From positions 55,814 through 119,813 of the IMG/VR virus record IMGVR_UViG_3300042691_025398: a stretch of DNA of 64,000 bases; one strand, written 5' to 3'. Below the pieces are notes generated by a model. That model made no database searches, had not been told where the DNA came from, and was given only the letters and a program-made list of their open reading frames with translations. This DNA comes from a virus. Its lineage: Duplodnaviria > Heunggongvirae > Uroviricota > Caudoviricetes. Of the stretch, positions 47-63,867 are shown piece after piece. A program made the translations under genes and the position numbers. Within the stretch, counting starts at the first letter, position 1, and the number at the start of each line of letters is the position of its first letter.

Positions 47-3000
47 GTGTTTGATGCACAATACTTTGATCAAGCACCGCAAACTGAAACCAGAAAAATA
101 ATTCAAGGCATCAATGAAGAATTGCTGATTGATGATCTATTGATTGAGCGCAATCGTTTATTGGTTCTGATGTTTAACTTTATACTCACAGAACAACTCA
201 CACCAAATTGGCTCATGAAAACCAGCTTGATTGATGTTGAACACAACATTCGTGAGCTGTTGCCTTATCAGACCTACAGACGAGACAACCAGGACTTTGT
301 TTTGGACTATCTGTCTGAAGTTAAACCTTATCATGTGCAAATACGTGAGTTTAACTTGAAGTATGCTGGTCAAGATTTATACTCGGGTGATATCGCGGAC
401 TTTGATGTTCCTGCTTATTTTAACACAGATTATCAGCAGTATATCAGCCCAATATTATCTGAAGTTGAAGCCGAACCTAGCGACGCTGCCAGCAACAATA
501 TCATATGGCAAACACAGCCTTATGATCAATGGTTTCAAAATTACAAGCTGACACTGAATTCCATAGTGTTGGTGTCCGGTGGGTCAGGATATACCACTGT
601 GCCTAATGTGACCATCACTGGTGTGGCTGTGAGAAATGCCACAGCAGTGGCAGTGATCAACAGTGCAGGTCAAGTGAATAGTATTGTGGTCACTGATCCA
701 GGTGAAGGGTATCTTACAACACCCACAGTGACCATTACTGGTGGTAATGGATCTGGTGCCCTGGCCTATGCAGTGCTTGATAATCTGTTGGTGCGTGGTT
801 TAAAAACCACCATGAAATATGATAGATATCAATATCAAACCACAGTTGAAGAATGGCAGCCAAACATCACTTTTGACAATGGTCAATTGGTAAGCTACGC
901 TGATAGAATTTGGGAAGCCAATAGCCCTGATAGTACCGGTGTGAACACATCTGAATTCATACCTGAAGATTGGATTTTGGTGCCCATTAGCGAACTCAGT
1001 GGTGTTGACCGAACCATGGGTTATTATGTTGCGCTGGCCACTGAGCCAGGTAAAGAACTACCGCTATTGATTTCAGGAGTTGACTATCCGGGTGTGCAGG
1101 TCAAGGGATTGAATTTCAATCAAGACACCGGTTATGCACGTGGACCATTTGACATGACTCCATGGGATAACTTGGACTTTGATGAAAACGGACGTCCTAC
1201 CTATAGCGAAACCATTATTGACAGTGTGTTTGAAAGTGCATTCTTGGATCAATATCTTGGAACCGGCGCTAATGATGTCATAGTCGACGGTGGTGCATTT
1301 GTTGATCCTTACAGCAGTCATGCTCCAGAAGAACTTGTGCCCGGAAGTGAATTTGATACCATGGACTTCAAGGTGTTCACACGACCAGGTAGTGATTGGA
1401 ACGGTCTAGGACATGGCTTTGATATTTTAACCTTGCGTGCTTCGCTGAATCTAGCTGATCCTACAATCAGTTGGGCACAAATAGCACAGTATCAGACAAA
1501 TGAAATCTATCCAGCTGCTATAAGAGTCAGCAATGCAGGACCAAATGGATACAGCCTTACTTCAAGAGATCTAGATCCAAGCGAATACACAGTTGATTGG
1601 GTAAATCAAACTGTGACAATTCTAAGTGGTGCCATTGATGATGACACCATTGTGGTTGAAGTGTTTGAAGTTGGTGGCGGCAATCAACTGCTACGACGCA
1701 ACTACAACGGTGGCGATATTGGTACCGAACTGATCGTTGATGTAAAATTCAGTGAAATTTACGAGTTGGTTTTCTATGTAAACGGACAGCGATTAATCCA
1801 AGGTGTTGACTACACCTATGCTGTTTTGGATACCACTAGAACCTTGGTGACATTTAATGTGATCTTGACCAGTCTTGATGCAGTGAACTTGACTGTGATG
1901 GGTACACAAACACCTCAGTATTCATGGAGTTTGCCTACAGTGCAAACTTTTACAATTCAAGAGCTGTCTCCAAGTGCCACAGCAGTGCTCACTTATCCAT
2001 TGACCAATAGCATGCAGGGATCAAATCCTGACAATGTGTACGTGACTGTGAATGGATTTAGAGCTAGACCCAGTCAAGGCATTGAATGGTATGGCGATGG
2101 TAGCAGTGCAGAATTCCTGTTCCCAGAACGCGGTGGCTACAGCCAAGGTCTAATCGCCGACAACGAAGTTGATGTTTATGTAAATGATGTGCCGCAGGTG
2201 TTAGGCAGTGATTTCACAGTGGTACCCTGGGATGGTTTCAGTAGACGTTCTGTTGTGCTTTCCTATACACCTGACATTGGCGATAGAATTTTGATCTGTA
2301 TCACTACCAAGGCTGATTATCTTGTGTCAGGAAATGAAATCACATTTAGACCAACTGGATCGTTTGGTGTGTTCCCTGGTGATAAAGTGGTTGTTACCAG
2401 CTACAATGACACCCGACAGCAGAGCATTGTGCAAATCGTCTGGGTTGGGCCTATTCAAGTTGGTGCCACAGCCAGCGAAGGTTTTGATTTCCTTCCGTTT
2501 GACAGCGGTGCGGTCAACAATGAATCCGGCAGTTTTGACTTCAGTGAAGGTATTATTGTAAGCGAAAATGACTTTGATTTGAGAAGACCTGAGCAACTGG
2601 CAGAGAGAATGATTGTTTCTCTCAACGGTAGAATTCTCTTCCCTGGTTTGGACTACACTATTATTTCAGAGAATGACACCACATATCTTGAACTTTTGTC
2701 TGGTCCTATCGCAGTAACCGATGTGGTAGTTGCCACTTTGTTTACTAATCAAATAGTTCCAAATGCCATGGCATTCCGTATTTTCCAAGACATGCGTGGT
2801 GTTCAATCAACTTATCGTATCACTGGTGACACAACCACCCGACTGGTGCGTGATCTTGGTGTAAACGATGATGTGATATATGTGGAAAATGCTGAAGCTT
2901 GTGGTCTGCCAAACATTGCGGCCAACTATCTTGGTGTTGTGGTTATAAATGGTGAACGAATAACCTTCAGGGCGAGAGATCTAGTGAACAACACGCTGTC

Positions 3001-8527: not shown

Positions 8528-8859
8528 ATTTTTGGCAACAGGTAGCAGAGTTATTAGAACCAGTTACAAATCATGAGACTCATTATAGAGTGTATTATGA
8601 CTCAACTGGACAAGTGTTATTTTATACCATGGAACACCTTCCAGGTAACTATCTAGACATTGATAGAGAAACCTACGCTCGCGCAGATTCCAAAGCGAGA
8701 GTTCAAAACGGAAAACTTGTAGCAGCAGCCACTCGAGTGAGTAGTAAACTCGTTCCAGACAATCAAGGACAGCCATGTCATCCACAGAATGTTGCTATTG
8801 TAAGTGATTCAGATCAAAACACAAAATGGAAGTTGAAACATTATGACCGAGCTAGTTGA
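8515..8859 (+). CDS. Hypothetical protein
   Basis: 114 aa ORF in the operon. Confidence 0.25.
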   Translation: MDTVDFWQQVAELLEPVTNHETHYRVYYDSTGQVLFYTMEHLPGNYLDIDRETYARADSKARVQNGKLVAAATRVSSKLVPDNQGQPCHPQNVAIVSDSDQNTKWKLKHYDRAS

Positions 8860-9769
8860 TATTGCTGATTTAGACTGTGTATTTTTAACCTATGATGAAC
8901 CTAATGCTGAGGAAAATTGGGTCCGTGTTCGGAACATGGTACCCTGGGCGCGACGAGTGGATGGTATTAAAGGGTCAGACGCCGCCCACAAAGCAGCAGC
9001 GATGGCGTCAACCACTGATCGCTTTGTGCTTATTGACGGGGACAATATCCCTGATGTTGCCTTTTTTGGGTGTACACTGGAGTTGGATGATACTAACCGG
9101 GACGTTGTATATCGCTGGAGGGCTAGGAATAACGTTAATGGATTGATGTATGGCAACGGTGGTATTAGTTGTTGGACACGAGACTTTGTGATGAACATGA
9201 AAACACACGAAGCAAGTGATGGCGCAGATGAAACCGCAGTTGAATTTTGTTTCCATCCAAAGTACTGGGCCATGCATGACTGTTACTCAACCACTTGTAT
9301 CAATACCACAGACTTTCAAGCCTGGCGTGCTGGATTTAGAGAAGGTGTCAAGATGTGCTTGGACCGTGGCCGCAGACCTTCTGTAAGCGAATTTCAAGAA
9401 CGTGTGTATCAACGTAATCTTGACAATCTAACCATATGGCACAACATTGGACGTGATGTTGAAAATGGTGATTGGGCAATCGCTGGTGCACGAATGGGCA
9501 CCTACATGACCATGTTGACCGAATGGAACTACCAATTGGTGCAAGACTTTGACGAACTAATAAAAATTTGGGATACAGTAAGAGATAATCATCCAGATGT
9601 GGTTGCAGGACGGCTTGCTGAAGATCTAAACACACAGCTTGGCCTACCCATGAACAGCACACAGGGCATGGAAAGTGAATTTTTTAAACATCACTATCGT
9701 GCTAACTTTCACAACCGGGGCATCATGACCAAAGAGATTGATGTGATTCAAGCACAGGAAGGCCGGTAA
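8843..9769 (+). CDS. Hypothetical protein, paralogous to the C-terminal domain of ORF 24471-26081
   Basis: Shared motifs GSDAAHKAAAMAST..F / GREAAYKVAAEQSET..F and NVNGLMYGNGGI / NPVNGLEYGAMNI. Confidence 0.35.
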   Translation: MTELVDIADLDCVFLTYDEPNAEENWVRVRNMVPWARRVDGIKGSDAAHKAAAMASTTDRFVLIDGDNIPDVAFFGCTLELDDTNRDVVYRWRARNNVNGLMYGNGGISCWTRDFVMNMKTHEASDGADETAVEFCFHPKYWAMHDCYSTTCINTTDFQAWRAGFREGVKMCLDRGRRPSVSEFQERVYQRNLDNLTIWHNIGRDVENGDWAIAGARMGTYMTMLTEWNYQLVQDFDELIKIWDTVRDNHPDVVAGRLAEDLNTQLGLPMNSTQGMESEFFKHHYRANFHNRGIMTKEIDVIQAQEGR

Positions 9770-10836
9770 TGTCTTATTTTACGCTACCCGCAGGTTACAA
9801 ACATCAATTAGTTTCTAAACCTAGGGGTAGATTACTGTCAACTCCAATACACAATAGTTGTAATGTGCCATATAAAACTGTGGTAGTGGATTACAATTCC
9901 AACTGTTTGATATGTGGTTGCGATGGTTGGCTACCAATTCCAGTAGGACAAGTGCAAGATTTTTTCAGTTTAGAAGATGTATGGAATAGTCCTACCGCAA
10001 AAATCCTGCAACAAGATATTGATGATAAAAAATTTACTTGGTGTGCAGTAGAACACTGTGGGATCAAACATCATAATATAAAACAATCTAGATATGAATT
10101 ATCAATAAACATTGATGAAAGTTGCAATTTACACTGTCCTAGTTGTCGCAGAGAACCAGTTATGCATTTACAAGGCACAGCTTTTGACAAGAAACTACAA
10201 GACATTGAACGCATACTTGGTTGGTTAGAATCCTTTCAACATCCTATACATATTGTGTTGTCGGGCAACGGTGATCCATTAGCCAGTGCAATCATTCGTC
10301 CTCTTATAAAAAAATACAAACCAAAAAGCAATCAGAGTTTTAAATTTTTTACCAATGGATTGTTGATCAAAAAACAACTAACAGACACAGCTATATTCAA
10401 CAATATAACAGAATTTTCAATAAGTGTTGATGCAGGTAGTCAACTAGTTTATGAAAATGTTCGTAGAGGCGGCAGTTGGCCAGTACTATTAGAAAATCTT
10501 GAATATTTAAAATCCATTGGCAAATCCGGATCAACCATCTTGAATTTTGCATTGCAAAAAAGCAATTTTGCTGACTTACAAAATTTTATTGATCTGTGTC
10601 ATTGGTACAATTTTAGCGCATTTGTGCATGGGCTTGACGATTGGGGGACCTGGAACACTAATGATGTGCAAGTACCTGATGCATGGACAATTAAAAACGG
10701 AACATTTAAACAGCACAATGTTTTAGACAGTGCTCATCCTCAATATCAAGAGTGCAAAAACATGATTCAAACAATTATGTCAGCTTCGCCACAGAATGTG
10801 TTCTTTTCTTTCGATTTACAGGCCAAACTTAGATGA
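9769..10836 (+). CDS. Radical SAM enzyme (divergent first member of the array)
   Basis: CX3CX2C motif (ESCNLHCPSC) followed by VLSGNGDPL. N-terminal Cys cluster (CNVPY..CLICGCDGW). Confidence 0.6.
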   Translation: MSYFTLPAGYKHQLVSKPRGRLLSTPIHNSCNVPYKTVVVDYNSNCLICGCDGWLPIPVGQVQDFFSLEDVWNSPTAKILQQDIDDKKFTWCAVEHCGIKHHNIKQSRYELSINIDESCNLHCPSCRREPVMHLQGTAFDKKLQDIERILGWLESFQHPIHIVLSGNGDPLASAIIRPLIKKYKPKSNQSFKFFTNGLLIKKQLTDTAIFNNITEFSISVDAGSQLVYENVRRGGSWPVLLENLEYLKSIGKSGSTILNFALQKSNFADLQNFIDLCHWYNFSAFVHGLDDWGTWNTNDVQVPDAWTIKNGTFKQHNVLDSAHPQYQECKNMIQTIMSASPQNVFFSFDLQAKLR

Positions 10837-46932: not shown

Positions 46933-46965
46933 TACAATCCTATTACAATTTTGAAAATATTTTCA

Positions 46966-47290
46966 TGAAAAAGCCCGCCGAAGCGGGCTTACTATTTTGG
47001 GTGACAAGGCATAGTTGCCTCGGAGGTTAGGCTGCTAGAGCGAAAACCTCGTCGTTAGCTGCGTTTGCAGTTACTATTTTGCTTGGATTACGTCCATCGC
47101 CTTTCGTGTTGCCTTCTCTACTATCTCACCCTGTCGAAACCTTGACTGGCCCATCAAAAGCATACTTGGAAGATTTATTAACCGCTGACTCTTACTCTTC
47201 CCCAGCGTCACTATAGTATGCTTTTGGTGGACCAGGCGGGAGTCGAACCCGCGTCCAGAATGCCTTCGCTTTGAAGGAATTACAACAATA
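46966..47290 (-). ncRNA. ssrA: Circularly permuted (two-piece) tmRNA
   Basis: The tRNA-like 3' end GGACGCGGGTTCGACTCCCGCCTGGTCCACCA (reverse complement of 47225-47260) lies upstream of the coding piece. The coding piece starts GGGCCAGTCAAGGTTTCGACAGGG at about 47153 and carries the tag reading frame ..GCAAACGCAGCTAACGACGAGGTTTTCGCTCTAGCAGCCTAA (ANAANDEVFALAA*). A terminator hairpin lies at 46968-46990. The 5' boundary is approximate. Confidence 0.7.
46968..46990 (-). terminator. Rho-independent terminator of tmRNA
   Basis: aagcccgcttcggcgggctt hairpin plus U-run on the minus strand. Confidence 0.6.
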
Positions 47291-47648
47291 CTTGAATTTT
47301 ACATTTATTTTTGCAGCATGTCAAATTACTCAACCTAGTATTAATCTTCATCTATTTTATGATGGTAAGTTTCATACCATAGTGCAAATAACACACCAAG
47401 CAAGCATCCCGTAAATATGGATCCTAAAAGAACTCCAATGATAAAATACAATTGTTCTGTGCCCATTGTTATTTTTCTACCAATCTTTGTTCACAACGAG
47501 CTTGAATTTTATCTTCTCTGTGATGAATCAATACTGGCAGTATTTCTTCACATTCTTCTCTGCGAGCAAAAGATTTCCAATCACGCCATTCGCCATCTGC
47601 TGCTACTAAAACAACAAGAACCCAGACGTATGATCCCACATAAGTTTC

Positions 47649-55528: not shown

Positions 55529-55996
55529 CTACAATGCACCATTGGCTATTCGGTCTGCTGCATAACTTGCAGCAAATGCCCGAGGTTTCACCAAGGGAAT
55601 CACATTACATGTGCCACGAATGTAACCAATAGCTTGACTGATCACACAGCTAGAACCATGCTCTTCATTGGGGTTGATATCCAAGTGCACTTCTACTGGA
55701 AAGTCTCCCATGATTGGTGCTAGACGTTGAAACATGTCACTCACACGATACACTTCATTCATCAATCGCATGGCTGGCTTACTGGCCTTTTGATCGTAAT
55801 CGCGTTCCTTGGTGATTTCACCAAAGATTTTACAACCATTGTTGCCATTCACATGCACTACCACTGCCACGGTGTATTCTGCAAACCATACACCTTTTTC
55901 TCTAAATCGCACACTGTCTGCGCCAAGATAAACTTTTGTACCCGGACCGCAGTTGTCGATATATTGTTTTACTTCATGTAAGTTTATCTTAGGCAT
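55529..55996 (-). CDS. Hypothetical protein within the tRNA array
   Basis: 155 aa ORF. No confident motif. Confidence 0.35.
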   Translation of the reverse strand: MPKINLHEVKQYIDNCGPGTKVYLGADSVRFREKGVWFAEYTVAVVVHVNGNNGCKIFGEITKERDYDQKASKPAMRLMNEVYRVSDMFQRLAPIMGDFPVEVHLDINPNEEHGSSCVISQAIGYIRGTCNVIPLVKPRAFAASYAADRIANGAL

Positions 55997-58790: not shown

Positions 58791-59204
58791 TTATTTGAGA
58801 TCTTTGGAATCCACACAGGTGCCGCCTTTGAACACATAGATATCTGAGTCTATGCGGATTTGTTCAAACACGTGATTGTTCACACAAATATATGGATCTT
58901 TGTAATTTTGAGTCCAAGAATACACTCCAAAACCTATACCAGCCAGCACCATGAGTATGGGAATATACTTTAGATACTTTACTATTTCTGGCATCGCACT
59001 CAGTATTTGAGGCAGATTTTTGAGCAATTCTTTCATGCTCTTATTTACTACTTTTGGCGGTCCCAAGGGGTAACGATCCCCTTCTTTCAGCGTGACAGGC
59101 TGATGTGCGTCCATGAACACTTTGGAACCTGTGTCTGGTGCTCTGCGTCCCGCGGCGGTAATTATAGTCTGTAGTAACACCCACCGACCCTCCACCCGCT
59201 CCAC
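58791..59204 (-). CDS. Hypothetical membrane protein (start uncertain)
   Basis: 137 aa. A hydrophobic segment. The 5' part lies in a GC-rich spacer that may be non-coding. Confidence 0.3.
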   Translation of the reverse strand: MERVEGRWVLLQTIITAAGRRAPDTGSKVFMDAHQPVTLKEGDRYPLGPPKVVNKSMKELLKNLPQILSAMPEIVKYLKYIPILMVLAGIGFGVYSWTQNYKDPYICVNNHVFEQIRIDSDIYVFKGGTCVDSKDLK

Positions 59205-59318
59205 AACCGGGACCGTTCTCGCATTGCCAGCGCACTTTCGGTTTGAAGTGTACCACCCGTGCTTGTCAAGGCACTTCTCATCCTCCGGGTCAGAGTATCC
59301 AGTGACGCTGGAACGTTT

Positions 59319-59394
59319 GGTACACCGTACGGGATTCGAACCCGTCTTTACGCCTTGAAAGGGCGTTGTCCTAACCGGATAGACGAACGGTGCA
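59319..59394 (-). tRNA. tRNA-Glu (UUC)
   Basis: Stem ACGCC/GGCGT. Loop CTTTCAA. Confidence 0.65.
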
Positions 59395-59701
59395 TAAAAT
59401 TAATGCTAACAAGGAACTGACTGTTACATGATGCCGAAGTCATGGTCGCATCAAACCCTTGCTGAACCCTTGAGGGACGATCCGCATTTGATCGTTTTAT
59501 TCTAAATTTTGAATCAGCCACTTGTTTTCCACTCAAGCCCTGAAACTGAGTTGTTACCCTGTCCATCCCTTTTATTCTCTGTCTGTGTGCAGAGGGATAC
59601 TGCCTATCAGATTCTGGGTTACCCCGCTAACGGTTTTCTGCCACCGGACCTCTATCGCTAGTCAAACGCTACTTTTAGGAGAGTAGTAACCGGAACTGGT
59701 T

Positions 59702-59773
59702 GCGGGAAACAGGAATCGAACCTGATGTCTTTGGCTTATGAGACCAACGAGTAAACCGTTTCTCCCTCCCGCC
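59702..59773 (-). tRNA. tRNA-like gene with CAU anticodon (Met/Ile2-like, atypical D-arm)
   Basis: Acceptor GCGGGAG/TTCCCGC. Anticodon stem TTGGT/GCCAA. Loop CTCATAA. T-loop TTCGATT. D-arm irregular. Confidence 0.45.
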
Positions 59774-59824
59774 ATTGTTTTGCAATATTTCTAGTGTAAC
59801 AAAAAGAATTTTATTGGTCAACCA

Positions 59825-59897
59825 TATAAAAACACACTATCCTAGATAACCTCTTTGGGACGGACCTTAACCGTTCAAAATGTGTTTTTATATGGTG
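59825..59897. repeat. Long-stem hairpin element, copy 1 (CCATATAAAAACACAC ... GTGTTTTTATATGG)
   Basis: 14-bp inverted arms flank about 44 nt. The right arm abuts the CCA end of tRNA-Lys. Confidence 0.6.
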
Positions 59898-59969
59898 GGG
59901 CCACTGAGATTCGAACTCAGGCCTGACGGATTAAAAGTCCGCTGTCTTAACCGCTTGACTATAGCCCCA
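59894..59969 (-). tRNA. tRNA-Lys (UUU)
   Basis: Stem GCGGA/TCCGT. Loop CTTTTAA. Confidence 0.65.
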
Positions 59970-60009
59970 TTATCTTATCACTCTTGTCACTGTCCATGAT
60001 GGACTCTCC

Positions 60010-60237
60010 TTATAATGTTTTACCTAGTCCCATCCAGATAAGTTGGTCTAGATCTGCTTGGTAATCTTTGCCTAATCTACGTTTTTCGTAGATGGCTTTT
60101 AATATGACCTGACCATCGCCGTAGTCAGTGGTGCCTGCTCCACGACGCTCTAGCTCTAAAACCAGTTCGTCTGTGTCAAAGTCTTCCATATCAATGTCAA
60201 CATCAACTTCTTTTGATACAGTTATATAACGACTCAT
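60010..60237 (-). CDS. Hypothetical small acidic protein
   Basis: 75 aa. Confidence 0.3.
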   Translation of the reverse strand: MSRYITVSKEVDVDIDMEDFDTDELVLELERRGAGTTDYGDGQVILKAIYEKRRLGKDYQADLDQLIWMGLGKTL

Positions 60238-60458
60238 GGTATTTTTCCTTTATAGATTGTAAGGCCACCTTGTCCCCAAGGCCCCTCACTGAGTTGTTAC
60301 CCTGTCCGCACATTTGTACTTGTGGCTAGAGCGTGGACTCCACCTACGTTTTTTCTATCACCCATATATTGGGCTTTGAGGCTATCAACGTAAGAGCCCT
60401 GGCATTGTGGTGAAGCCAATTTACCCCCATGACTAACGAAGATGGGACTCCGGGATAC

Positions 60459-60530
60459 CATATTGAAACACACTACAAAACGCTGTCACGCTCAGAGTTC
60501 GTCCATTAGCGAAGCAATGTGCTTCAATAT
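60459..60530. repeat. Long-stem hairpin element, copy 2 (CCATATTGAAACACAC ... GTGCTTCAATATGG)
   Basis: Inverted arms flank about 45 nt. Abuts a tRNA-like T-arm/CCA fragment at 60531. Confidence 0.6.
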
Positions 60531-60562
60531 GGTGGACCGCGGGGATTCGAACCCTATACTAG
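60531..60562 (-). other. tRNA-like 3' fragment (T-arm plus acceptor 3' strand plus CCA), resembling the tmRNA 3' end
   Basis: Reverse complement reads GGGTTCGAATCCCCGCGGTCCACCA. No matching 5' acceptor strand was found nearby. Confidence 0.4.
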
Positions 60563-60634
60563 TTACCTAGCATATTTTCTCTCTGCGACTTCGGGTGATC
60601 ACTCCCTAGCCGGCAACCATTGCCATTACAGCCC

Positions 60635-60696
60635 ATATTGAAACACACTATGCCACGCTCTGAACCTGGACTCTTAGTAATGTGCTTCAATATGGC
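60635..60696. repeat. Long-stem hairpin element, copy 3
   Basis: CCATATTGAAACACAC - 33 nt - GTGCTTCAATATGG. Confidence 0.6.
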
Positions 60697-60796
60697 AACA
60701 ATGTTGACTACCCTTCTAGCCCACGGTCAAGTTCTGCTAGTCGCTTTAGGGTCACCGGTAGTTCTGTCGCGCAACAGGTTACCGATCATTGTTTAC

Positions 60797-60891
60797 CATA
60801 TTGAAACACACTTAGGAATTGAACCTTTTTCAGCGAGCATCGCCTGTCTACCAAGACACCCTTTCGAACGGGTCAAATGTGTTTTAATATG
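60797..60891. repeat. Long-stem hairpin element, copy 4
   Basis: CCATATTGAAACACAC - about 65 nt, containing a GGAATTGAACC T-loop-like segment - GTGTTTTAATATGG. Confidence 0.6.
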
Positions 60892-61072
60892 GCCCAACAA
60901 TTAGCAGTATATACTGCCGCCAATTATTGGTCAACCATATTGTTGGGGTCGACACCCCAACCAGGAGTCTTACTGATCGCGTTACCGCCGCGTCTTCATG
61001 TGTCCTGTCCGCCCGTTTGCAGTTTTTTGTGAACTGCTGGTCCTCGTTACCTTAAACACTACGACAATTAGC

Positions 61073-61228
61073 TAGAGTATAACTTAAACTCTTGTGATTG
61101 TCTATAGCCTTGATGCATCAGCCTTGCACGTTCTAGCTTGTCTTCAATCAGCTTGGCCACCTGTTCGGCTGTTAGTACATGTTCGTTAAACTGATGCAAT
61201 CTTGTTTCATCTTTCTTTTCTTTCATAT
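61073..61228 (-). CDS. Possible small protein (about 52 aa, MKEKKDETRLHQFNEHV...)
   Basis: Unannotated short ORF read on the minus strand. Below the ORF-track length cutoff. Confidence 0.2.
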
Positions 61229-61235
61229 CACCTTA

Positions 61236-61275
61236 TAAAAACAAAAACCCTGGAGTGTTTAGTTCCAGGGTCCTA
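61236..61275 (-). terminator. Rho-independent terminator
   Basis: ccctggagtgtttagttccaggg hairpin followed by a U-run on the minus strand. Confidence 0.45.
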
Positions 61276-61537
61276 GTAGAATGTTGCTAGACATTTGTCG
61301 ATCTACTCGGACCCTCCACGATCACTATTCTCATTCGCACGGGTATATCCAAACTGGAGCCATGATGTTAGCCCGCCCATGACAATACATGGGTGTTGTT
61401 TGGATAAGGGCGATGTCGTGTAAGTCTTCATAGCGTCTATTGTATGCTTTTATTTATACCAGGTCAATGTAAATTTTGAATTATTCAACAGCAATTTTGC
61501 CAAAATATCTTAATAAGTTTGCAACTCAGTTGTGATT

Positions 61538-62438: not shown

Positions 62439-62873
62439 TTATTCCGCTTCCTGTTGATTATGAAATGGTCCTTGATACGGATATCTTTGTAAAGTGATCA
62501 GCTTGGGGTTCCGCATCACTCGCCACTGTTTGTTCTGTTGCACACGATACCATCCAGCTGCATACCAACTCTTGCTTTTACGAGTCTTGGTAAACAGCGG
62601 CAACTGACGTCTTACTTCATAGATACCGTTGTATGCGGCACAGCCGGTGTCAAACCCATGCACTTGATTTGAGGGTTTTCGATTGGTCTTGAGAGCTGGT
62701 TCAAAGTCAATGCCCACACGTTGTTTGATCATGCGTACATTTTTAAAACTTTCCACTTGGCCACCAATGGTCACAGCAAATCCTGCGTCAGTGGCCTGAA
62801 TGTTTCCTACTTTTTGATCATCTTGTTTGAGAATCCAAAAACGATCAGGTATTACAGGTTTGGCTACTATCAT
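62439..62873 (-). CDS. Hypothetical protein
   Basis: 144 aa. Confidence 0.3.
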   Translation of the reverse strand: MIVAKPVIPDRFWILKQDDQKVGNIQATDAGFAVTIGGQVESFKNVRMIKQRVGIDFEPALKTNRKPSNQVHGFDTGCAAYNGIYEVRRQLPLFTKTRKSKSWYAAGWYRVQQNKQWRVMRNPKLITLQRYPYQGPFHNQQEAE

Positions 62874-63867
62874 TCAATACTCCTTGATAAACGGTGTTCA
62901 ACCAGTTGGCATATTGATCTGCCTGATCACTGATTTTTTGCAAGTCAAATTTGCCACAAAAACGCATGAAGCGGACACCAACTTGACCAATGTCCTTGTG
63001 TGCTACTTGTTCTTTAATAGCAGTGTCCACTTTGTGTTTGATATCGTCTGGTTGTGCGTTTAGATCAATCAAGTGACGATTTCGATTATAATCATCAAGC
63101 ACCCGGTGTTCAGCACCATTATGATCAGTCCAACGCTGCAACATCAGGTTGTTCCACGCATAACCACGATTGTGTCTGTCTTCAAACGCTTCAGTAAGTC
63201 CCACTTTGTTTTTAGTACCCTTGGTACGCACACCCGGATATGCAGAAAACACATTGTCAGATGCATCACCTCGCATGCATTTTTCAAACAGCAACCATTC
63301 TGGGTCAGGGATTAGTTTGGGTTCTTTGGTTTTTTTATCAACTACTTCGCGCCCGCGAGCATCAAAAATACCTTCTAGCGTGATAAGTTCATCTTGGATA
63401 CCGTTGAATTGATTTACATTGGTTGCAATCAACTGTACAAAATCAGTGTCACTGCTCACAATAGTATGATGATCGCCAGGATGTAAATGTATCCATCTAG
63501 CAATGATATCATCAGCTTCGGCTTCTGGATGACGTATTACCGAGCAGTTTGTGCCCTGCTCCAAGTATTTAGTAAACTGATCATATGTGTCCCAGAACAA
63601 GCGATCTTCTTCTTGTTCTGCTTCAGTCAAAGCAGCTCTGGACGCAGCACGATTGGCTTTGTAGGGTTTGTAAAAGTCCTTGCGCCATGAACGTCCTTCC
63701 AGTGCGAAAATCACATGGTCAGCTGAGAATTTACGAGCAACCTTGTTGATCGCGCTAAGAGTGATGTGTAGGGCATAGCCCACTTTTTCATCAGCTGAAC
63801 TTGCACGGTGGGCTACGTGTCTAGCCCGGAAAAACATATTCGCGGTATCAATCAAAAGATAGTGCAT
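62845..63867 (-). CDS. rnh: 5'-3' exonuclease / flap endonuclease (T4 RNase H-like, FEN family)
   Basis: N-terminal MHYLLIDTANMFFRARH matches the LLxDGxxxxxRAxxA start of 53EXO/FEN nucleases. Acidic clusters (DTDF, EADD) are consistent with metal-binding sites. Confidence 0.7.
   Translation of the reverse strand: MHYLLIDTANMFFRARHVAHRASSADEKVGYALHITLSAINKVARKFSADHVIFALEGRSWRKDFYKPYKANRAASRAALTEAEQEEDRLFWDTYDQFTKYLEQGTNCSVIRHPEAEADDIIARWIHLHPGDHHTIVSSDTDFVQLIATNVNQFNGIQDELITLEGIFDARGREVVDKKTKEPKLIPDPEWLLFEKCMRGDASDNVFSAYPGVRTKGTKNKVGLTEAFEDRHNRGYAWNNLMLQRWTDHNGAEHRVLDDYNRNRHLIDLNAQPDDIKHKVDTAIKEQVAHKDIGQVGVRFMRFCGKFDLQKISDQADQYANWLNTVYQGVLNDSSQTCNT

Follow-up and report, generated by a model that had tools for sequence, protein, structure and literature searches.

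Phage transfer RNA (tRNA) islands are known to harbour orphan RNAs of ornate structure. GOLLD (RF02032) is a complex pseudoknotted RNA of phages and prophages that lies near tRNA islands, lake metagenomes included, and sometimes has a tRNA in its linker, and ROOL (RF03087) is found in phages and prophages near tRNA islands as well; it too forms multiple pseudoknots, and no protein partner of it is known (PMC12286853). The theta ribozymes of gut phages, which are similar to the ribozyme of hepatitis delta virus (HDV), are likewise structured RNAs beside phage tRNAs and are involved in tRNA end processing (PMC10879173). In phage T4 the small stable RNAs rnaC and rnaD (species 1 and 2 RNAs) are encoded in the tRNA cluster, on the tRNA strand. 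Here we analyse three long spacers in the tRNA region of an uncultivated Caudoviricetes phage, IMG/VR record IMGVR_UViG_3300042691_025398 (positions 55,814 to 119,813; this whole stretch of 64,000 nucleotides (nt) is called the window below). The spacers hold members of two conserved, covarying RNA families, which are encoded on the tRNA strand of phage tRNA arrays in hundreds of uncultivated phage contigs. One family, sp1, is found in spacer 1. The other is built around a 19-nt sequence (the 19-mer) and is represented by subtype B in spacer 2 and by subtype A in spacer 3. We consider it likely that each long spacer is the gene for a discrete, stable and highly structured noncoding RNA within the phage tRNA operon.

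RNAs of this kind are thus already known, and the two families have no detectable sequence or model similarity to the described examples. The resemblance to T4 rnaC/rnaD, GOLLD and ROOL is limited to context. The T4 RNAs start 1–6 nt after the preceding tRNA or RNA (directly after tRNA-Arg in the T4 record), and the placement here is comparable. However, they are shorter (119 and 139 nt), the RNAs here lack the tRNA-like T-arm with which rnaC ends, and the profiles of our three alignments (A1, A3 and A4, described below) give no match at E ≤ 10 in T4 positions 69000–74500 with nhmmer --max. With GOLLD the families share the niche of phage-encoded RNAs beside tRNA islands, since the tRNAs are co-oriented and most copies adjoin them. 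In one related phage locus, L077, a GOLLD RNA (8986–9452, minus strand), an sp1 RNA (8662–8865) and a type A RNA (10407–10610) even lie in one tRNA region, GOLLD being about 1 kilobase (kb) from the 19-mer RNA and about 120 nt from the sp1 RNA. The GOLLD model scores 213.5 bits there, with a tRNA-like insert in the linker, which serves as a positive control, yet it matches neither the window nor the 19-mer and sp1 members of L077. The consensus sequences have no common blocks, and GOLLD often exceeds 800 nt, whereas each RNA here has about 200 nt. ROOL, with a length of about 580 nt, occupies the same niche but gives no covariance-model match in the window or the related loci. Theta ribozymes are RNAs of about 60–70 nt with a nested double-pseudoknot HDV fold; no HDV-type model matches the RNAs here, for which catalysis is hypothetical. 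Transfer-messenger RNA (tmRNA), which is also encoded by these phages (in the window and in locus L050), is similar in that it is stable and contains a series of H-type pseudoknots. The RNAs described here, however, have no tRNA-like domain, no tag reading frame and no match to the tmRNA model.

Two conserved RNA families in the long spacers

The 28 tRNA genes of the window lie on the minus strand, as does a permuted tmRNA (ARAGORN, Rfam). An initial annotation placed most tRNAs 2–10 nt apart, which is overstated (gaps of 10 nt or less in 12 of 27), and singled out three long, GC-rich spacers between tRNAs. Non-tRNA stretches do exist at these places. The gap between tRNA-Asp and tRNA-Glu measures 188 nt (59130–59317) and that between tRNA-Glu and tRNA-Met 307 nt (59394–59700), but the third stretch (60238–60458) is not between tRNAs: it is flanked by a long hairpin and an open reading frame (ORF) of 75 amino acids, upstream of tRNA-Lys. 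Only spacer 1 is clearly GC-rich (57.4% against 43.2% in the window); the other two have 45.0% and 48.4%. Neither do the three spacers form the single class in which they had been put, for spacers 2 and 3 share one family, whereas spacer 1 lacks the 19-mer and belongs to an unrelated one. The central proposal, that the spacers are candidate structured RNAs, is borne out by the comparison with related phages. All three RNAs are kept in other phages, with strong compensatory base-pair changes; conservation of the spacers and of their structure is thus clearly present.

Family members were gathered from IMG/VR by the exact 19-mer, by sequence pattern and by nhmmer profiles, membership extending as far as nhmmer reaches. 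The loci were fetched at up to 15 kb and carry labels such as L002, L018 and L077. Alignment A1 contains 35 diverse type A members, A3 contains 17 type B members, and A4 contains 32 diverse sp1 members with the window copy as the first row. Base pairs were counted per alignment cell and compared with shuffled (500 times) and slid pairing partners. A column-wise helix search on the MAFFT alignment was dropped, as it suffered from misaligned variable regions and from false partners in invariant, G-rich columns. Because of this misregistration, helices were tested per sequence, each segment being paired with its own (cognate) partner or with that of another member (cross-paired), at 5 base pairs (bp) or more.

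The 19-mer GGACAGGGTAACAACTCAG is shared by two of the spacers, as first noted: it is present in exactly two copies in the window, in spacers 2 and 3, and in none of 100 dinucleotide-preserving shuffles, even with 3 mismatches. The shared stretch around it reaches 31 nt at 84% identity (repeat family D20). The exact 19-mer is found in 95 IMG/VR stretches with divergent yet alignable flanks. Among 185,579 prokaryotic species genomes (one for each species) there is one exact match, which we reject as chance, given its AT-rich surroundings and the absence of the family flanks.

The RNAs of spacers 2 and 3 are paralogues, subtypes B and A of a single family of about 200–215 nt, in which variable, subtype-specific 5′ domains precede a constant core of about 65 nt around the 19-mer. 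Type A RNAs start with (A)CCCGG-UUUACACUUU and type B RNAs with UUCCGGUUACUACUUUCC, and a few contigs have other 5′ domains; the 19-mer and the 3′ stem-loop are common to all subtypes. The type A profile matches the 3′ half of the type B copy in the window (nhmmer, E = 1.7e-10). The family is defined by the 19-mer, or a variant of it with at most 3 substitutions or one inserted nucleotide, and then in turn an outer stem that covaries, GGGC, an inner hairpin and GU(A/G)GC; both window copies show the full succession.

In the window the type A RNA is predicted to fold into a 5′ H-type pseudoknot, formed by CGGAG/CUUCG and UCCCAU/AUGGGG (stems S1 and S2), a hairpin UUGGC/GCCAG whose ACC loop pairs to GGU, more hairpins, the 19-mer and the 3′ stem-loop GGGGCC...GGUGGCC. 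RNAalifold finds 27 pairs in the 35 members, 17 of them with compensatory changes. With this structure and the S2 stem, 95.6% of the paired cells hold a base pair, as compared with 77.9% for shuffled and 34–46% for slid partners; cells in which both bases changed number 189 versus 53 in shuffles, and the covariation score is 0.473 versus 0.145 (reached in 0 of 500 shuffles). In the per-sequence test hairpin 2 forms in 24 of 35 members with the cognate partner and in 8% of cross-pairings. The loop of hairpin 5 pairs with the segment directly preceding the 19-mer in 24 of 35 (30% cross-paired), and the 5′ stem S1 forms in 14 of 35 (19% cross-paired). S1 is CGGAG/CUUCG in the window and becomes CGCAG/CUGCG or CAGAG/CUCUG in other members. 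The GGU after S2 that pairs with ACC in the hairpin 2 loop covaries to CGC:GCG. From these helix tests together with the GGU:ACC covariation, type A probably has three H-type pseudoknots. The 5′ ACCCGGCUUAC of some type A members is reminiscent of the CR-V region of RNase P RNA; covariation of this segment contradicts the likeness, which we judge coincidental.

We predict a three-way junction with the 19-mer as its hub, at which the RNA 5′ end, a 4-bp hairpin and the 3′ stem-loop meet, the latter with a conserved internal loop. Within GGACAGGGUAACAACUCAG the predicted hairpin comprises G6–C17, G7·U16, G8–C15 and U9–A14 with the loop AACA, while G1G2A3 would pair with the 5′ end of the RNA and G19 would open the 3′ stem. 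The hairpin and the pairing with the 5′ end remain predictions, because the bases are invariant and thus not open to a covariation test. Rare variants, GGACAGAGUAACAGCUCAG in L083 and GGACAGAGUAACUGCUCAG in L010, change G·U to A–U and U–A to U·G; the internal hairpin is therefore kept. GUAACAA of the 19-mer resembles positions 1497–1503 of 16S rRNA, which we take to be a coincidence.

The type B RNA comprises, in this order, a 5′ UUCCGGUUAC domain a few nt after tRNA-Met, a GGG-GUAA-CCC tetraloop hairpin, the 19-mer and the 3′ stem-loop. Its invariant 5′ UCCG is predicted to pair with the YGGA that opens the 19-mer (RNAalifold on A3). Hairpins of this sort were part of the initial annotation, which had listed GGUAAC in several spacers. 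In the RNA sense the motif occurs 7 times in 59100–61100 against 15 times in the other 62 kb, and several of the occurrences are indeed G-GUAA-C tetraloop hairpins.

The sp1 RNA is a member of a family of about 200 nt that is unrelated to the 19-mer RNA. In the window it begins 1 nt after tRNA-Glu and stops about 8 nt before tRNA-Asp. The family is defined by two invariant blocks, GCGGGUGGARG and UAUAAUUACC, that are set in a scaffold of 9 helices with covariation, and the window copy fits this definition. The invariant pieces are GAUGAGAAGU, CGCUGGCAAUGCGAGAAC, GAGCGGGUGGAGG and UAUAAUUACCGCCG. The pattern of GCGGGTGGARG, 18–48 nt and TATAATTACC retrieves more than 120 IMG/VR stretches among the matches listed. 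For the 32 members RNAalifold gives 39 pairs, 26 of them compensatory; 94.1% of the paired cells hold a pair, versus 76.3% for shuffled and 36–49% for slid partners, with 208 double-change cells versus 60 and a score of 0.520 versus 0.194 (0 of 500). The hairpin CUCUG-ACC-CGGAG shows covariation, to GUGUG/CACAC. A further pseudoknot is suggested by its segment GACCC, which seems to pair with GGGUG; this pairing reads GGUCC/GGACC in L002, L125 and L172. The internal loop, in which GUGGAR stands opposite AUAAUUA, is invariant.

In both families G·U pairs are invariant or frequent, hence we suggest that the conserved structure is that of a minus-strand RNA rather than of a DNA cruciform. The features of the region are collected in Table 1.

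Table 1. RNAs of the two families and neighbouring features of the window, all on the minus strand
Feature	Position	Strand	Remarks and basis
tRNA-Asp(GUC)	59055..59129	−	just downstream of sp1 RNA; ARAGORN, Rfam 38.4 bits
sp1 RNA	59138..59317	−	nhmmer with A4, 151.7 bits; A4, RNAalifold, pair counts
tRNA-Glu(UUC)	59318..59393	−	between type B RNA with tail and sp1 RNA; ARAGORN, Rfam 60.1 bits
Tail module	59394..59504	−	just upstream of tRNA-Glu; nhmmer homologues in L018, L002, L067, L072
19-mer RNA, subtype B	59505..59699	−	nhmmer with A3, 153.7 bits; A3 and RNAalifold
19-mer, copy 1	59546..59564	−	in subtype B RNA; exact match
tRNA-Met(CAU)	59701..59772	−	immediately upstream of type B RNA; ARAGORN, Rfam 43 bits
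Sigma-70-like promoter candidate	59793..59821	−	TTGACC-17-TACACT with TG, upstream of tRNA-Met; consensus match
Long hairpin, 18-bp stem	59819..59898	−	−25.6 kcal/mol, z = −4.1; inverted repeat I5
tRNA-Lys(UUU)	59893..59968	−	ARAGORN, Rfam 70.3 bits
75-amino-acid ORF with Shine-Dalgarno sequence	60010..60237	−	directly after type A RNA; no Pfam match
19-mer RNA, subtype A	60248..60457	−	nhmmer with A1, E = 1e-39, 134.7 bits; A1, RNAalifold, pair counts, helix tests
19-mer, copy 2	60289..60307	−	in subtype A RNA; exact match
Long hairpin, 20-bp stem ACCAUAUUGAAGCACAUUGC / GUAGUGUGUUUCAAUAUGGU	60455..60535	−	−34.2 kcal/mol, z = −5.75, 0 of 200 shuffles
Sigma-70-like promoter candidate	60906..60934	−	TTGACC-17-TATACT, 10 of 12 consensus matches; would drive the hairpin and module series including type A RNA

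Placement in tRNA arrays and comparison with known RNA classes

All 3264 tRNAs in the fetched loci lie on the strand of the RNAs. The 5′ end of the RNA is within 15 nt of the 3′ end of an upstream tRNA in 36 of 65 type A, 22 of 43 type B and 51 of 81 sp1 copies, and a downstream tRNA follows within 200 nt in 57 of 65, 38 of 43 and 53 of 90 copies, respectively; other copies come after the stop codon of a protein gene or after a long hairpin. Such a position at the end of a tRNA could be that of a self-cleaving ribozyme, which in the manner of the HDV-like theta ribozymes would cut at its own 5′ end and thereby trim the 3′ trailer of the upstream tRNA, the 19-mer or the sp1 core being the active site. 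In addition to the fact that more than half of the copies start at most 15 nt past a tRNA, the pseudoknot at the 5′ end, the invariant core amid freely varying helices and the precedent of tRNA-adjacent ribozymes in phages (PMC10879173) are in line with this idea. Nevertheless we hold it to be improbable: many copies come after a protein gene or a hairpin instead of a tRNA, about 200 nt is far above the needs of known trailer-cutting ribozymes, the putative cleavage junction has no conserved nucleotide beyond an A-rich linker, and no Rfam ribozyme model matches.

Rfam 15 was searched at the gathering threshold in the whole window and 11 related loci, at E ≤ 10 in 58900–61500 of the window, and at E ≤ 1 in 8400–10700 of L077. 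In 58900–61500 no group I or group II intron, RNase P, 6S, riboswitch or ribozyme model is found at E ≤ 10, and at E ≤ 1 there is no match to the type A and sp1 members of L077. The models without a match at E ≤ 10 include those of the small self-cleaving ribozymes (HDV-like/theta, hammerhead, twister, pistol, hatchet and glmS). Representative sp1 and type A members find no match in GenBank phage records even at relaxed E-values.

The same scans bear on the reading of the spacers as intron remnants or RNase P-like fragments, which the initial annotation had put forward. GNRA-type (GUAA) tetraloops and pseudoknots would be typical of such RNAs too. However, there is no Intron_gpI match at E ≤ 10 in 58900–61500, at the gathering score in the window or at E ≤ 1 in L077, and no bacterial RNase P family at E ≤ 10 in the window stretch or at E ≤ 1 in L077. 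Moreover, no gene is interrupted: the flanking tRNA-Asp, tRNA-Glu, tRNA-Met and tRNA-Lys are complete, with normal scores, and the elements lie between genes. The spacers might also be short protein-coding genes, as ORFs of 58–81 amino acids can be drawn over them. Three of these ORFs (59041–59256, 59113–59358 and 59348–59566) were suspected early on of being spurious, and the suspicion holds: they coincide in part with tRNA genes and with the structured RNAs, Pfam gives no match for them, and substitutions in the spacers follow the pattern of base-paired RNA. The one Rfam match in the spacers, to DUF2815, we take for noise (18 bits against a cut-off of 41 bits). We therefore give hardly any credence to introns, RNase P fragments or short coding genes as an explanation of the spacers.

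The three RNAs co-occur far above the expectation from the locus size of up to 15 kb, and always on one strand: A with sp1 in 20 loci, B with sp1 in 19, A with B in 8, and all three in 8. Type B is 5′ of sp1 in 26 of the 27 loci with both, and in 11 of them the gap of 88–240 nt has room for about one tRNA, as in the window. This arrangement might mean that type B, the embedded tRNA and sp1 belong together as the domains or subunits of a single composite assembly, to which type A might also belong. Such an assembly would be similar to GOLLD, in which a tRNA-bearing linker connects a 5′ and a 3′ domain and which forms cages. GOLLD and ROOL, which occupy the same niche, oligomerise (PMC12286853), and the invariant internal-loop strand AUAAUUA of sp1 holds the palindrome UAAUUA. 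Yet the distance from B to sp1 reaches 0.5–2.4 kb with several tRNAs in between (for example, in L010 and L002), each RNA is also found alone in many loci, and the tRNAs in between are presumably excised. No intermolecular covariation among A, B and sp1 rises above partner-shuffled controls, and the kept order may be mere synteny. Hence we regard a composite assembly as unlikely and prefer to treat the three as separate RNAs.

The neighbourhood of the RNAs in the window and in related phages

The long hairpin at 60455–60535 stops exactly where the type A RNA starts. It is kept in L079 and L018 and is a candidate double-strand-specific processing site. The 5′ arm of the hairpin at 59819–59898 begins in the CCA end of tRNA-Lys. 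Together with 60631–60697 and 60793–60894 (all minus strand) these form a family of long hairpins at the borders of the RNA modules, with 18–20 bp stems and z from −4 to −5.8. The stems ACCAUAUUGAAGCACA.../...UGUGUUUCAAUAUGGU are found as 264 arm pairs on both strands in 2.1 megabases of loci, and in other phages hairpin arms with this sequence are found next to members of both RNA families. The recurrent hairpins may serve as RNase III-type processing sites or mark the borders of cassettes.

Between type B RNA and tRNA-Glu the tail module contains a near-invariant hairpin of about 65 nt, UUUAGCAAGGGUUUGAUGC...GUUCCUUGUUAGC, with an invariant AUGACUUCGGCAUCAUGUAA segment (RNAalifold; its 5 sequences are too few for firm covariation). 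Part of the promoter candidate upstream of tRNA-Met, 17 nt long, is repeated at 60924–60940 (repeat family D18).

The type A RNA of the window stops 9 nt before the start codon of the 75-amino-acid ORF with its Shine-Dalgarno sequence. Similarly, in many phages a type A or type B RNA lies upstream of a mini-ORF and tRNA-Lys, and by sequence inspection the spacer CCUGUC between Shine-Dalgarno sequence and AUG of the mini-ORF is complementary to GACAGG of the 19-mer in many of them. From such an arrangement the RNAs could be leaders that regulate the gene or tRNA behind them in cis, in the way of riboswitches or attenuators. We find this very improbable. The downstream neighbours are mixed: tRNAs for 13 different amino acids are found within 120 nt, and there are ORFs and hairpins as well, so that no consistent downstream gene family exists; no riboswitch model matches; and sp1 normally stands between two tRNAs. 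The 75-amino-acid ORF is absent from L018, which is 91–98% identical and whose alignment with the window breaks at 60035–60250. Thus the ORF is not an obligatory partner of the type A RNA, nor is the RNA its leader.

The mini-ORF itself (59959–59997 in the window, minus strand) has 12 codons, MDSDKSDKIMGL and a stop, and a strong Shine-Dalgarno sequence. Its stop codon coincides with nt 8–10 of tRNA-Lys(UUU). Among 42 distinct IMG/VR versions tRNA-Lys(UUU) is next in 41, and the stop is at tRNA nt 10 in 36 of these 41; nearly all versions have two Lys codons, and two have in-frame 9-nt insertions. Speculatively, the mini-ORF may exert a translation-coupled control of tRNA-Lys maturation.

Upstream of the type A RNA and its hairpin, a cloverleaf-like RNA of 99 nt (60534–60632, minus strand) combines a stem like that of an acceptor, a hairpin similar to a D-arm, and a T-arm GGGUUCGAAUCCC. 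It also has a long extra arm with a GUAA tetraloop and an oversized ‘anticodon’ arm; CCA comes directly after the RNA, and neither ARAGORN nor Rfam calls it a tRNA. This RNA and one hairpin copy are missing from L018, and it has no homologue in the fetched loci. Noncoding modules at 60696–60794 and 60893–61065 (minus strand) sit between hairpins and promoter-like sites. The former has a homologue in L079. Homologues of the latter, in which GCG-GUAA-CGC is one of several GUAA hairpins, are present in L002, L093 and L094. Both are probably additional small RNA genes.

In GenBank phage records (INPHARED) the region has only tRNA matches and shares nothing beyond the tRNAs. The nearest cultured relatives are PA5oct-like Pseudomonas jumbo phages, with 52% amino-acid identity in the flap-endonuclease/RNase H protein (62845–63867). 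We therefore assign the window to an uncultivated, probably large phage. Its two-piece, permuted tmRNA (46936–47338, minus strand) is of betaproteobacterial type with the tag ANAANDEVFALAA; another is present in L050 (8311–8716, plus strand). The tmRNA type hints at a betaproteobacterial host. In the array of a related phage, L079, ARAGORN finds a tRNA with the anticodon CUA (9231–9305, minus strand; labelled Pyl), which would be of the amber-suppressor type. Genes that are frequent near the RNAs encode a metallophosphoesterase (62 loci), an RNA polymerase omega-like protein (44 loci, including L038 at about 1066–1311, plus strand; Pfam RNA_pol_Rpb6, E = 6e-12) and an RNaseH_like PF04308 protein (39 loci).

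Proposed maturation of the RNAs and its implications

We suggest the following route for the RNAs. They would be transcribed together with the tRNAs as one polycistron from sigma-70-like promoters. Host enzymes of tRNA maturation would then release them, with RNase P cutting where the following tRNA begins, at its 5′ end, while endo- or exonucleases would act after the 3′ end of the preceding one. Where no tRNA adjoins, the cuts would be made in the recurrent 18–20 bp hairpins, which resemble RNase III-type sites. The freed RNAs would persist as stable species that act in trans. Since the hub nucleotides are invariant amid freely varying helices, a tertiary core might either bind a conserved cellular component or catalyse a reaction. 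The function is probably tied to tRNA or translation during infection, a suggestion that we make with low confidence. A further possibility, which we consider doubtful, is that the RNAs are new classes of RNA machines: a new class of ribozymes that act on tRNA precursors or other RNAs, or subunits of a multi-RNA assembly, similar to the GOLLD and ROOL cages, that manipulates host translation or counters tRNA-targeting defence.

Several points weigh against the view of the spacers as genes of stable, structured RNAs. Transcription, processing sites and stability are drawn from the genomic context alone, and promoter-like sites are barely above expectation (9 found versus 5.1 ± 2.6 in shuffles). 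The folding energy of the single sequences is no better than that of shuffles (z = −0.82, −0.04 and +0.74). Stem S1 of the 5′ pseudoknot is moderately supported, and the predicted 19-mer hairpin and 5′-end pairing involve invariant bases, with the two variants in their favour. Apart from the missing intermolecular covariation described above, the conserved neighbouring proteins (metallophosphoesterase, omega-like, PF04308 and unknowns) include no obvious protein partner of the RNAs.

Neither the motif strings nor a description of such RNAs was found in the searchable literature; they may be among the roughly 10,000 unnamed candidate viral RNAs of Fremin et al. (PMC10690425), whose tables the search did not cover. 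Complex pseudoknotted RNAs with invariant cores are the class that yielded ribozymes, riboswitches and the GOLLD and ROOL cages, and new widespread examples are now rare. Both families described here are apparently confined to uncultivated phages. At about 200 nt they are compact, concrete targets for structural and functional work, and A1, A3 and A4 can serve as seed alignments for new covariance models, with better annotation where such regions are now blank or filled with spurious ORFs. Last, the niche is common to GOLLD, ROOL and T4 rnaC/rnaD. This suggests that phage tRNA arrays serve in general as a launch pad for RNAs other than tRNAs, which are processed by the tRNA machinery.

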